A stretch of DNA of 17,933 bases from Candidatus Heimdallarchaeota archaeon (GTDB lineage: Archaea > Asgardarchaeota > Heimdallarchaeia > Heimdallarchaeales > Heimdallarchaeaceae), in assembly GCA_019057815.1 (NCBI GenBank), contig JAHLWR010000036.1:1-17933 (forward strand). The letters run 5' to 3'. The translations under genes and the position numbers were made by a program. The notes beneath the pieces were generated by a model that had not been told where the DNA came from, searched no databases, and saw nothing but the letters and a program-made list of their open reading frames with translations. Below, one piece after another: positions 10,486 to 12,382 of this stretch. Position 1 is the stretch's first letter; each line of letters starts with the position of its first letter.

Positions 10486-10659
10486 ACTGAATCCTTTCCA
10501 AATATAAATTAACTTTAACAATTAAATAGTTACAAAAATACATTGAATAGATGACTTTAATATTTTTGCATGAGTTATTTTTCCCACTTCTCCCAAATTG
10601 AAGGAAAGTTGAAGACAATTTTGAGGACTCTTCCCAACCCAAGAACGTTTAAGATAGCA

Positions 10660-10830
10660 TCACATTAAGCGTAGCTAGGTAGTTTCAAGCTCTGGGATTA
10701 CACCTCCAACACACAGTGTTAACGGAGGTGAGGGGGTTCATCTCCTCACCGGGACTCATTACTGGAGACTATGTTATTGAGAACCTTAGGCACTCACTCC
10801 AGCTCCGGGGGTAAGCAGATGACTCTGCTT
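10660..10830 (-). ncRNA. Putative omegaRNA (scaffold plus guide) of TnpB
   Basis: GC-rich hairpins just 3' of tnpB (cacctcc/ggaggtg 10701-10730; ggtgagg/cctcacc 10727-10750). On the minus strand the structured part ends in ...GAGCTTGAAAC at 10682. Boundaries approximate. Confidence 0.6.
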
Positions 10831-12264
10831 CGTCTGTAGCCATTGGCTTAAGACAGGGAAGACACGAAAAGAACTGAGTGGAAAGAACTTTCCACTAACT
10901 TGATCTTTGATGGAGTTATACTTTGGTTGCAGAACGTATTTTATCAGTCTTTTAGCTATATTTTTCGCTCCATTCAAGTCTGCATTAAGGTTATATCCAC
11001 AGGTATGGCAGATGAATGTAGGTTGGTTAGGACGGATAGTGTGATAGGATTCACAACGCGAACAGCAAGAAGAGGTCCACGATTCACCGATTGCTAGTAT
11101 CTTGTGCTCCTCCCATCCTTGTAAAGAGAGCTTGAATTTGAGTAATTCTACCACCCTCCTGTAATTCCATTTTTGGACATTTTTACGGGAACGAGGGTGG
11201 AAATTGCCTCTAAAGTGGTTCTTACGGATATGAATGGGGAAGCCTACCACCACGTAGAGATCATATCTCTTGCCAACAGAGAGAATATACTTTACTAATC
11301 TGTTGACATAGGTGTGGTCAGTTAATTTATGCTCTGTTCTTTTTCTCTTTCTGAGCGATTTAAGTTGTTGTAGAAGACTGTTTTTCTTACTTACACTTAA
11401 GCTAGTTTTAGCAATAATTTTCTGCAGTTTAGCGATTTTTTGTTCTGTTTCCTTTAATAGTTTTTTTCGTGTCTTATCAGACCAGAATCTGATCTCATGA
11501 CGATTGATTGTTCCTTTCGGAGTTAAGAGTGCACTTACTGCACGTTTGTTGATTCCTAAGTCTATCCCCAGCACAGCTGGAGGACGAGAAGAAGAATATT
11601 TCTCTGGAACATTAAGCAAGATGAAATGTATCCACCATTCCTTCTTCTTGGGATAGTAGAGCACTTCAAGCGCCCGTAATTTTACCTGATTTAGTTTATA
11701 TTCATGATAGGGTGAACAAGCTAGAGGTAACCACAATTTCTCGTGTATGTGGGTTTTGTTCTTCGTTGTATCTAAGGAGTCTCTTATACCTACCCACCAT
11801 CGGGCAATGGAATTCGAAGGAGAACAAGTAAGAATAAACCTTTTGGCATGTGATAGCTGTATACGAGGGATTTTTTTTAGTTGAGGATCTTTAGCAGGTG
11901 CTGAATTCTTTGCTTGTTGACTATGATAGATAGCTACAGCGTTATCTCTACATTCTTGCAGTTCGTTCTGGGAGCAGCGTGGGAAGTTCTTTTTCAAATC
12001 ATGTCTAGCTGTATGACGATTGGGTAGTTTATTCTTCTTATATGTGGTAAGAGTAAGATGGTCTAGTTTCGCTTTATTAACCTTCTTTTTACCCTTCTTT
12101 GTTGTTGCTAGTTGCTCTTCATTGTGATATATTGCTTTGAGGTACTGTTTGATTATTCTCGAATCTCTCCCCGTAATCTGTTCCAGTCTCTTTCTTTTCC
12201 GTGTTGTGATTACGTCTGTTTTAACTCTCACTTTTACAGTCGTCCTCACTCCACTTCTCGTCAT
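10786..12264 (-). CDS. tnpB: TnpB family RNA-guided endonuclease with rearranged RuvC-II
   Basis: RuvC-I VLGIDLGIN, zinc finger CSRC..CHTC, RuvC-III NADLNGAKNI. The RuvC-II position reads VVVGFP, with an alternative Glu in IGESWTS. Confidence 0.92.
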   Translation of the reverse strand: MTRSGVRTTVKVRVKTDVITTRKRKRLEQITGRDSRIIKQYLKAIYHNEEQLATTKKGKKKVNKAKLDHLTLTTYKKNKLPNRHTARHDLKKNFPRCSQNELQECRDNAVAIYHSQQAKNSAPAKDPQLKKIPRIQLSHAKRFILTCSPSNSIARWWVGIRDSLDTTKNKTHIHEKLWLPLACSPYHEYKLNQVKLRALEVLYYPKKKEWWIHFILLNVPEKYSSSRPPAVLGIDLGINKRAVSALLTPKGTINRHEIRFWSDKTRKKLLKETEQKIAKLQKIIAKTSLSVSKKNSLLQQLKSLRKRKRTEHKLTDHTYVNRLVKYILSVGKRYDLYVVVGFPIHIRKNHFRGNFHPRSRKNVQKWNYRRVVELLKFKLSLQGWEEHKILAIGESWTSSCCSRCESYHTIRPNQPTFICHTCGYNLNADLNGAKNIAKRLIKYVLQPKYNSIKDQVSGKFFPLSSFRVFPVLSQWLQTKQSHLLTPGAGVSA

Positions 12265-12382
12265 TCTTGAATCATTTTTTCTATTAGATTTCGCTATAAA
12301 AAACTAACTTAAATGTGGGAAAAGTGGTTAAAAATAGCCATGCTCCTTTCAACAGACTTGCACAGTTTTCAGAGTATAAAAC

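Follow-up and report, generated by a model that had tools for sequence, protein, structure and literature searches.

TnpB nucleases whose RuvC-II glutamate occupies an alternative position (Ealt) instead of the canonical one (Ecan) have been described as the Ealt D-Phi-G clade (Yoon et al. 2023, PMC10711439), as TnpB2 (Jiang et al. 2023, PMC10530073) and as RIIr (Altae-Tran et al. 2023, PMC10691335). Yoon et al. defined Ealt TnpBs by a regular expression that places the Glu six residues before a CxxC motif (PMC10711439), and Altae-Tran et al. described the change as a shift of the Glu from beta-4 to beta-5 (PMC10691335). In TnpBs of this type, an inert residue, Gly or Pro, takes the place of the canonical Glu. 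Fanzors and the cyanobacterial IS607 pro-Fanzors carry two fingerprints, Ealt and D-P-G in RuvC-I, and the D-Phi-G Ealt TnpBs form a clade separate from this DPG+Ealt Fanzor/pro-Fanzor clade (PMC10711439). The solved Fanzor2 ApmFz2 has the triad D324/E467/D501, with a Glu shift of 50 residues (PMC11832414), and its E467A mutant is dead (PMC10530073). The archaeal Ealt enzyme TvTnpB from Thermoplasma volcanium cleaves with the target-adjacent motif (TAM) NTGAC and has no collateral activity (PMC10530073). The Ealt arrangement is already known, and experimentally validated, in large prokaryotic TnpB clades, archaeal ones included. In this study, we analysed a tnpB gene with the same arrangement in a window of archaeal DNA, which is the entire 17,933-bp contig (C10) of the 3.74-Mb, 48-contig genome G000, with a G+C of 32.8%; the genome is 95% complete. 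The best explanation, which we regard as likely, is that the gene product P0001 is an intact Ealt TnpB, carried by a 1.77-kb non-autonomous element that has inverted ends, inserts at CATG and encodes an omegaRNA at its right end. P0001 likewise appears to be a member of an Asgard-restricted long-form clade inside the large prokaryotic Ealt TnpB group.

Pfam, PDB sequence and profile searches, AlphaFold2, Foldseek and VIA-align show that P0001 has the complete WED-REC-RuvC-TNB architecture and is a divergent TnpB, which NCBIfam matches below its cut-off. The open reading frame (ORF) of the original prediction was confirmed as a stop-free minus-strand translation of 492 aa. The Pfam domain PF07282 (Cas12f1-like TNB domain) was detected at residues 368-436 (E 2.7e-12; cut-off 26.3 bits). 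PDB sequence and profile searches retrieved Cas12f and TnpB chains, with OsCas12f at 6.5e-22 and ApmFanzor2 at 2.7e-10 in the profile search. The AlphaFold2 model, built from an alignment of 32 clade members, has a mean predicted local distance difference test (pLDDT) score of 83.6 and a predicted template modelling (pTM) score of 0.70. In Foldseek (E 4e-16), the model comes closest to AsCas12f, OsCas12f and CnCas12f and next to ISFba1 TnpB and ISDra2 TnpB, and the VIA-align Z scores are 20.5 for AsCas12f, 20.4 for OsCas12f, 17.4 for ISDra2 TnpB, 16.9 for the mimivirus Fanzor2 (ApmFanzor2) and 16.6 for ISFba1 TnpB. The C-terminal extension noted earlier for this long protein is borne out by residues 446-480, which are confidently modelled past the RuvC-III helix; the final 12 residues are modelled as disordered. 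Sequence comparison indicates that P0001 is under purifying selection, with a ratio of nonsynonymous to synonymous substitution rates (dN/dS) of 0.11-0.21 in all 28 pairs among eight intact tnpB copies.

The four motifs named in the original prediction were all found: GIDLG (D235), YVVVGFP (G341), IGESWTS (E394) and ADLNGA (D429). The Glu shift of 53 residues that it gave is exactly the distance from G341 to E394. Its statement that the Asp residues of RuvC-I and RuvC-III are intact also holds, as D235 and D429 are invariant in the 32 clade members (34-86% identity, drawn from 154 relatives returned by the database search). The other invariant residues discussed here in this alignment are G341, E394, T397, S398, C401, C404, C419 and C422. 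Since the two Asp residues, G341, E394 and the four Cys residues are invariant in all 32 members, the G341/E394 arrangement is not due to chance. We also ran a profile search of 1.84 billion representatives, which gave 12,804 matches; from the 150 with the best scores, the 93 that were 330 aa or longer were added to the alignment. Approximately 80 of these 93 relatives have G341 with E394, and 11-12 have E341 (in ENLKG) with Pro or Ala at position 394, which is the Pro of the usual DPxxTS motif. No protein with Glu at both 341 and 394 was present among the 93 aligned relatives. The two combinations exclude each other; they are thus alternative states, and the canonical Glu corresponds to position 341.

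The predicted catalytic triad of P0001 is D235-E394-D429, where the placement of E394 is suggested by topology, covariation and analogy. The model has D235 at the end of strand 229-236 and G341 at the end of strand 335-342, while E394 comes immediately after strand 389-393 and D429 is at the start of helix 428-445. This topology is that of the published beta-4 to beta-5 Glu shift. The sequence matches the Ealt regular expression D{P}G x(120-160) E x6 CxxC x(12-18) CxxC x(4-8) D (PMC10711439). The Glu-to-Asp spacing is 35 in P0001 (E394-D429) and 34 in ApmFanzor2 (E467-D501), and the shifts are 53 and 50 residues, respectively.

P0001 is probably an active RNA-guided nuclease. The original prediction preferred an active enzyme to a dead one, and the invariant triad, the dN/dS values, the mobile multicopy element and the presence of an omegaRNA agree with this preference. 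The Gly at the canonical position could alternatively mean that P0001 is a catalytically dead, domesticated derivative, such as a TldR-like RNA-guided DNA binder or regulator, which has lost the canonical RuvC-II Glu. However, a compensating E394 is invariant and strictly coupled to G341, D235 and D429 are both invariant, and published Ealt enzymes cleave DNA (PMC10530073). The NCBIfam TnpB score of P0001 lies under the cut-off, which would suit a derivative of this kind, and distant Thor/Loki members of the clade adjoin a conserved giant gene, where exaptation is possible; the window tnpB, by contrast, belongs to an element that is mobile, multicopy and bounded by ends of its own, and it has no conserved host neighbour. 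Published dead TnpBs lose catalytic residues and become immobile (PMC10691335). Neither loss, of catalytic residues or of mobility, was found here: the triad is invariant, and the element has eleven copies, an empty site and near-identical miniature forms. A dead derivative is thus improbable.

All named records among the 154 database relatives are Asgard archaea (Heimdall, Thor and Loki/Promethearchaeia), and the best 80 related genomic loci, which were examined for clade range and neighbourhoods, are all Asgard. Clade members have 480-650 aa, compared with approximately 350-470 aa in the nearest outgroups, which are short prokaryotic-type Ealt TnpBs; of ten outgroup sequences, one carried a taxon, Odinarchaeia. 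In a FastTree phylogeny of 117 sequences, the Ealt sequences make up what is essentially a single group: the Ealt state needs 2 changes, compared with 10.7 expected, and Ecan sequences lie outside. Within a long-form clade of 63 members (support 100), itself nested among Ealt TnpBs of shorter length, P0001 falls into a Heimdall subclade. Its Glu relocation was therefore inherited from the larger clade and did not arise in its own lineage. One sequence with the canonical Glu, P0255 (415 aa), is nested with a support of 99 inside an Ealt subclade of the same tree; either it has reverted to the canonical site or its long branch is misplaced.

The original prediction also considered the protein relevant to Fanzor origins, and this part was not supported: RuvC-I is D-L-G and not D-P-G, the IS607 serine recombinase is missing, and the Glu shift is common to prokaryotic relatives. 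On this view, P0001 would be an archaeal protein closely related, or ancestral, to eukaryotic Fanzors, and the Glu relocation would have passed into eukaryotes by vertical descent. P0001 and Fanzors do have the same Ealt position, with the Glu six residues before the zinc finger and nearly equal Glu-Asp spacing (35 and 34; PMC10711439). RuvC-I, however, is D-[LVFMI]-G in P0001 and all 93 relatives, with no D-P-G in any of the 93, and Fanzors belong with the IS607 pro-Fanzors in the DPG+Ealt clade, apart from D-Phi-G+Ealt (PMC10711439). No serine recombinase was found in or beside the window element. ApmFanzor2 is a significant match (profile E 2.7e-10, VIA Z 16.9), but by sequence it is weaker than Cas12f and bacterial TnpB, and by fold it is behind Cas12f and level with the TnpB structures; Fanzor1 (8GKH) is absent from the listed PDB profile, Foldseek and VIA matches. 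The Asgard-only range of the named records and of the best 80 loci could be taken as favouring descent into eukaryotes, but the nearest outgroups are the short prokaryotic-type Ealt TnpBs. The context is an archaeal chromosome instead of a eukaryote, a giant virus or a cyanobacterial IS607 element. We consider such a close relationship or ancestry very improbable. It is just as improbable that the Fanzor/pro-Fanzor lineage has its closest archaeal sister in the Asgard long-form D-Phi-G/Ealt clade. If it did, an Ealt-type RNA-guided nuclease would already have been present in the archaeal ancestor of eukaryotes, carried by an inverted-end transposon with a non-IS605/IS607 transposase, like Fanzor1 elements. 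A specific tie between P0001 and Fanzor origins is not supported; at most, P0001 represents a cousin clade with the Ealt state in common, and the current picture of Fanzor origins is unchanged by it.

The tnpB gene is the sole cargo of the 1.77-kb element. A blastn search of the genome revealed five full-length copies at 88-90% nucleotide identity and six short copies, all with inverted terminal repeats. The repeat arms of the paralogous copies are 30-34 nt long and 79-87% complementary; the terminal repeat of the window copy is more degenerate (approximately 74% by eye) and was missed by the repeat search on that copy. The contig is a piece of archaeal chromosome, with the genes for PEPCK, cytidine deaminase (cdd) and the ribosomal proteins L1, P0 and P1 flanking tnpB. 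The genome of the same genus, G001, is identical over 4.8 kb to the GenBank metagenome-assembled genome (MAG) Heimdallarchaeota archaeon 8H_bin2, and this Heimdall-group genus mate supports the Asgard host that was initially considered probable. In G001, the site between the PEPCK and cytidine deaminase genes is empty, and the window with the element taken out gives a gap-free alignment to it (95% identity). This empty site has a single CATG, whereas the window has one at each junction. The insertion on contig C30 is orthologous, being common to G000 and G001 with identical flanks. Together with the empty window site, it indicates that insertions both predate and postdate the split of the two genomes.

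The left flank ends in CAT, followed by the G of the element, in 16 of 17 copies (the exception is CAAG), and position -4 holds G, A or C but never T in the 17 copies (genome T frequency 0.336). The right end reads AACTCAT, and the next base is G in 13 of 21 copies. The CAT/G left junction and the variable base after CTCAT therefore favour a boundary at CAT/G...CTCAT/. Regarding the movement of the element, one tentative reading is that a DDE-type transposase acting in trans recognises the inverted ends of approximately 30 nt and moves the element by cut-and-paste, duplicating the 4-bp CATG. The 30-34-nt inverted ends with their 79-87% complementarity and the single CATG in the empty site, doubled at the window junctions, are consistent with this reading. 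Inverted ends are reported for all DDE-associated TnpBs, along with solo TnpBs that carry the ends of transposase-bearing elements (PMC10691335). In contrast, 8 of the 21 copies have a base other than G as the fourth base at the right end, even though its neighbours are nearly invariant, which better fits insertion 3' of CAT without duplication, as in IS200/IS605. The flank conservation is also asymmetric, with the constraint at -4 on the left side only, and the genome motif scans and the metagenome pattern scan yielded no DDE element with matching ends.

The other possible reading, also held with considerable doubt, is an IS200/IS605-like (IS1341-type) movement through single-stranded DNA, in which a Y1 TnpA in trans makes one cut behind the CAT of the left flank and another behind the right-end CTCAT, without target duplication. 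The left flank ending in CAT, the CTCAT right end and the variable base after it suit this reading, as do a subterminal hairpin approximately 14 nt inside the right end, two Y1 TnpA genes in the genome and the logic of IS200/IS605 elements, in which the TAM equals the target. True inverted ends, though, are not known as a feature of the IS200/IS605 family, and the left end of this element has no obvious hairpin of its own. Y1-associated TnpBs are reported to have asymmetric ends (PMC10691335). The two resident Y1 insertion sequences were considered as the autonomous partner and rejected, as their ends and hairpins are unrelated. Motif scans of the genome for the element ends found only its own family and apparent chance matches, and a pattern scan of metagenomes for the ends found three family members and six apparent chance matches.

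The six mini-elements (354-357 bp) consist of the left end with a TATA-like box joined directly to the sequence corresponding to window positions 10856-10570. Three of the six are 97-99% identical, and this near-identity indicates recent movement. As the right-end sequence comparison indicates, a putative omegaRNA of approximately 290 nt, conserved and structured, ends at the right end of the element. We aligned 21 right-end regions from this and related genomes (75-94% identity), and the consensus fold has 69 pairs in 13 helices. In this alignment, 97.8% of cells are paired, compared with 34-44% when the partners are slid, and 12 pairs have compensatory changes, compared with 2.5 +/- 1.1 in shuffles (0/500). 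The window omegaRNA has a minimum free energy of -87.2 kcal/mol (z -2.24), and the region matches no Rfam family. Its terminal ACUCAU pairs with AUGAGU approximately 190 nt upstream. Similarity between copies ends right after ACUCAU, and the guide is therefore predicted to come from the flank. A guide internal to the element was rejected because the variable loop (alignment A2 columns ~186-232) is homologous between non-orthologous copies, while the DNA after the right end is unrelated. The first approximately 70 nt of the omegaRNA also code for residues 470-492 of P0001, including the invariant W475. The W475 codon (10840-10842) lies inside the first omegaRNA hairpin (GCC-AAU-GGC; within 10830-10856), which is kept in the minis lacking the ORF; constraint from the protein and from the RNA thus acts on one and the same stretch. 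The tnpB gene contains a 17-nt inverted repeat (10859-10875 and 11459-11475; 94% complementary, 583 nt apart), one arm of which lies just upstream of where the omegaRNA begins, and the C30 copy has it too (89%). It may reflect long-range mRNA pairing relevant to omegaRNA processing, or it may be due to chance.

We propose a pathway for this element. The element would be transcribed from a TATA-type promoter in its left end, and the omegaRNA scaffold would end at the right end, where adjacent host DNA would supply the guide. After excision, the restored donor site, with a left flank ending in V-C-A-T(-G) as the TAM and the guide-matching right flank, would be recognised and cut by TnpB-omegaRNA. 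This cut would trigger recombinational re-copying of the element. The occupied site would escape cleavage, as the right end reads C-T-C-A-T, with T at -4. The mini-elements of approximately 355 bp, with only the promoter and the omegaRNA, would use TnpB in trans, and transposition would need a separate transposase in trans.

Several points weigh against this explanation as a whole. NF040570 (guided_TnpB) in NCBIfam covers residues 40-439 of P0001 at 63.8 bits (E 1.7e-17), under its cut-off of 100 bits. The nuclease activity is itself inferred, and the proximity of E394 to D235 and D429 is read from the secondary-structure topology of the model, from covariation and from analogy. Two of the five full-length copies are pseudogenes, and the TAM proposal is based on only 16-17 insertion sites. 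In addition, inverted ends are atypical for IS200/IS605, and a transposase with matching ends was not found in the genome, the 80 related loci or the metagenome pattern scan. We nevertheless regard the intact, mobile Ealt TnpB as the likely explanation. The coordinates of its features are listed in Table 1.

Table 1. Features of the tnpB element in the 17,933-bp window.
Feature	Positions	Strand	Basis or remark
Whole mobile element, 1770 bp, boundary CAT/G...CTCAT/ (10569-12342 counting both CATG)	10570..12339	-	Five full-length copies; empty site in G001
Left-end terminal inverted repeat, including junction CATG	12309..12342	-	Paralogous arms 30-34 nt
TATA-like box (T-rich, then TATAG), ~30 nt upstream of start codon	12294..12303	-	Read directly; kept in minis upstream of omegaRNA; putative archaeal promoter
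tnpB coding sequence, 492 aa (P0001)	10786..12264	-	Open frame; Pfam, NCBIfam, AF2 (AlphaFold2), VIA
RuvC-I Asp235 codon, G-I-D-L-G, D-Phi-G type not D-P-G	11560..11562	-	Invariant in 32/32 clade members; end of strand 229-236
Gly341 codon at canonical RuvC-II Glu position	11242..11244	-	Invariant Gly; aligns with E of ENLKG in Ecan relatives; end of strand 335-342
Alternative RuvC-II Glu394 codon, six residues before first CxxC	11083..11085	-	Invariant; coupled to G341 in ~80/93 relatives; directly after strand 389-393
Zinc finger C401, C404, C419, C422 (TNB domain)	10999..11064	-	Four invariant Cys; PF07282 residues 368-436
RuvC-III Asp429 codon, N-A-D-L-N-G	10978..10980	-	Invariant; start of helix 428-445
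Putative omegaRNA scaffold, ~287 nt; first ~70 nt overlap codons 470-492; ends at right end	10570..10856	-	Retained in six minis; consensus fold
Right-end terminal inverted repeat = 3' end of omegaRNA scaffold	10569..10602	+	Terminal ACUCAU pairs with AUGAGU ~190 nt upstream
Predicted guide, flanking DNA transcribed past right end, assumed ~16-20 nt	10550..10569	-	Copy similarity stops after AACTCAT; analogy with characterised TnpB omegaRNAs

G000 has 39 TNB-domain loci in total. A second TnpB family of this genome, present at C1:96519-97760 (minus strand) and C12:126860-128113 (plus strand), has 413-417 aa and is approximately 30% identical to P0001; it also fits the Ealt pattern (D-E-A-Y-T-S-Q-T-C, D-L-G). 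The remaining resident TnpB families have Pro at the alternative Glu position. A 2.2-kb repeat is present at C27:146393-148591, C12:123977-126169 and C21:21461-23619 and codes for a 652-aa protein with a partial TNB-domain match, which is a separate, long TnpB-like family. The C27 copy abuts a degraded serine-recombinase gene. This 652-aa TnpB-like/serine-recombinase locus was considered as a partner of the tnpB element and rejected, as it shares nothing with it.

In 18 of the 80 related loci (L073:480-5771 on the minus strand, also L063, L071, L072, L082, L095 and others), approximately 200-250 bp separate tnpB from an opposite-strand giant ORF. These clade members are of the Thor/Loki type, are 35-40% identical and have 560-610 aa, and the giant ORF has 1,400-1,760 aa. 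The giant ORF has no Pfam, NCBIfam or PDB sequence match, and in Atlas it is weakly STAND/AAA-NTPase-like (0.80). The pair could be an exapted TnpB system. In a Heimdall subgroup (L026:2857-5589 on the plus strand, also L036, L042 and L044), a HerA/DUF87-type ATPase of approximately 900 aa is encoded directly upstream of tnpB on the same strand, and the ATPase of the L026 group is CedD-like (E 1.3e-10). No Cas1 was found within 6 kb in the 80 loci by blastp and phmmer with two resident Cas1 proteins, a search of limited sensitivity; a link to the Asgard Cas1-TnpB groups (PMC10691335) is thus unsupported.

The locus provides a complete testable unit, with a nuclease, an omegaRNA of approximately 290 nt, a candidate TAM (V-CAT-G), an empty site and omegaRNA-only minis. 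To the TnpBs with a relocated Glu, our analysis adds a well-delimited Asgard-wide clade, which includes records from Heimdall, Thor, Loki and Odin, with dozens of copies to a genome. Because published Ealt enzymes act without collateral cleavage, enzymes of this kind are attractive as genome-editing tools. The inverted ends and the CATG target without a matching transposase pose a small question on how TnpB elements move in Asgard archaea.

In comparison with known systems, the best solved-structure match of P0001 is Cas12f (AsCas12f 8DZJ/7WJU and OsCas12f 9NZS; residues ~5-449, Z 19-20.5), and the ISDra2 and ISFba1 TnpBs match over the same residues (Z 16.6-17.4), in both cases with the WED-REC-RuvC-TNB arrangement. 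Unlike P0001, Cas12f and these two TnpBs have the canonical RuvC-II Glu, and unlike CRISPR-associated Cas12f, the P0001 locus has no CRISPR array. Insertion 3' of CAT would fit an IS200/IS605 (IS1341-type) element, but the ends here are inverted repeats, and those of the resident Y1 elements are unrelated. Miniature derivatives of IS200/IS605 elements with only the omegaRNA, similar to palindrome-associated transposable elements (PATEs) or miniature inverted-repeat transposable elements (MITEs), keep the ends and the RNA gene, as the minis do here. The element resembles the DDE-associated TnpB branches (PMC10691335) in its symmetrical transposon ends and in being a solo tnpB that is probably mobilised in trans; it differs from them in its CATG target and in that the searches of the genome, the 80 related loci and the metagenomes yielded neither a DDE nor any other transposase with these ends. 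With Fanzor2 (ApmFz2, PDB 9B0L), P0001 shares the Ealt position, the Glu-Asp spacing (35 vs 34) and a TnpB-like fold (VIA Z 16.9, 362 residues aligned), but it differs from Fanzor2 and Fanzor1 in D-L-G, in its archaeal host, and in having neither an N-terminus of the nuclear localization signal (NLS) type nor an IS607 recombinase. The closest counterparts are the Ealt/TnpB2/RIIr TnpBs, which likewise have Gly at the canonical Glu position, Glu six residues before the zinc finger, a D-Phi-G RuvC-I, a prokaryotic host, a transposon-borne gene and an omegaRNA at the right end. P0001 differs from these TnpBs in its greater length (492 aa), in a clade that is Asgard-only by named records, in its inverted ends and in its CATG junctions.

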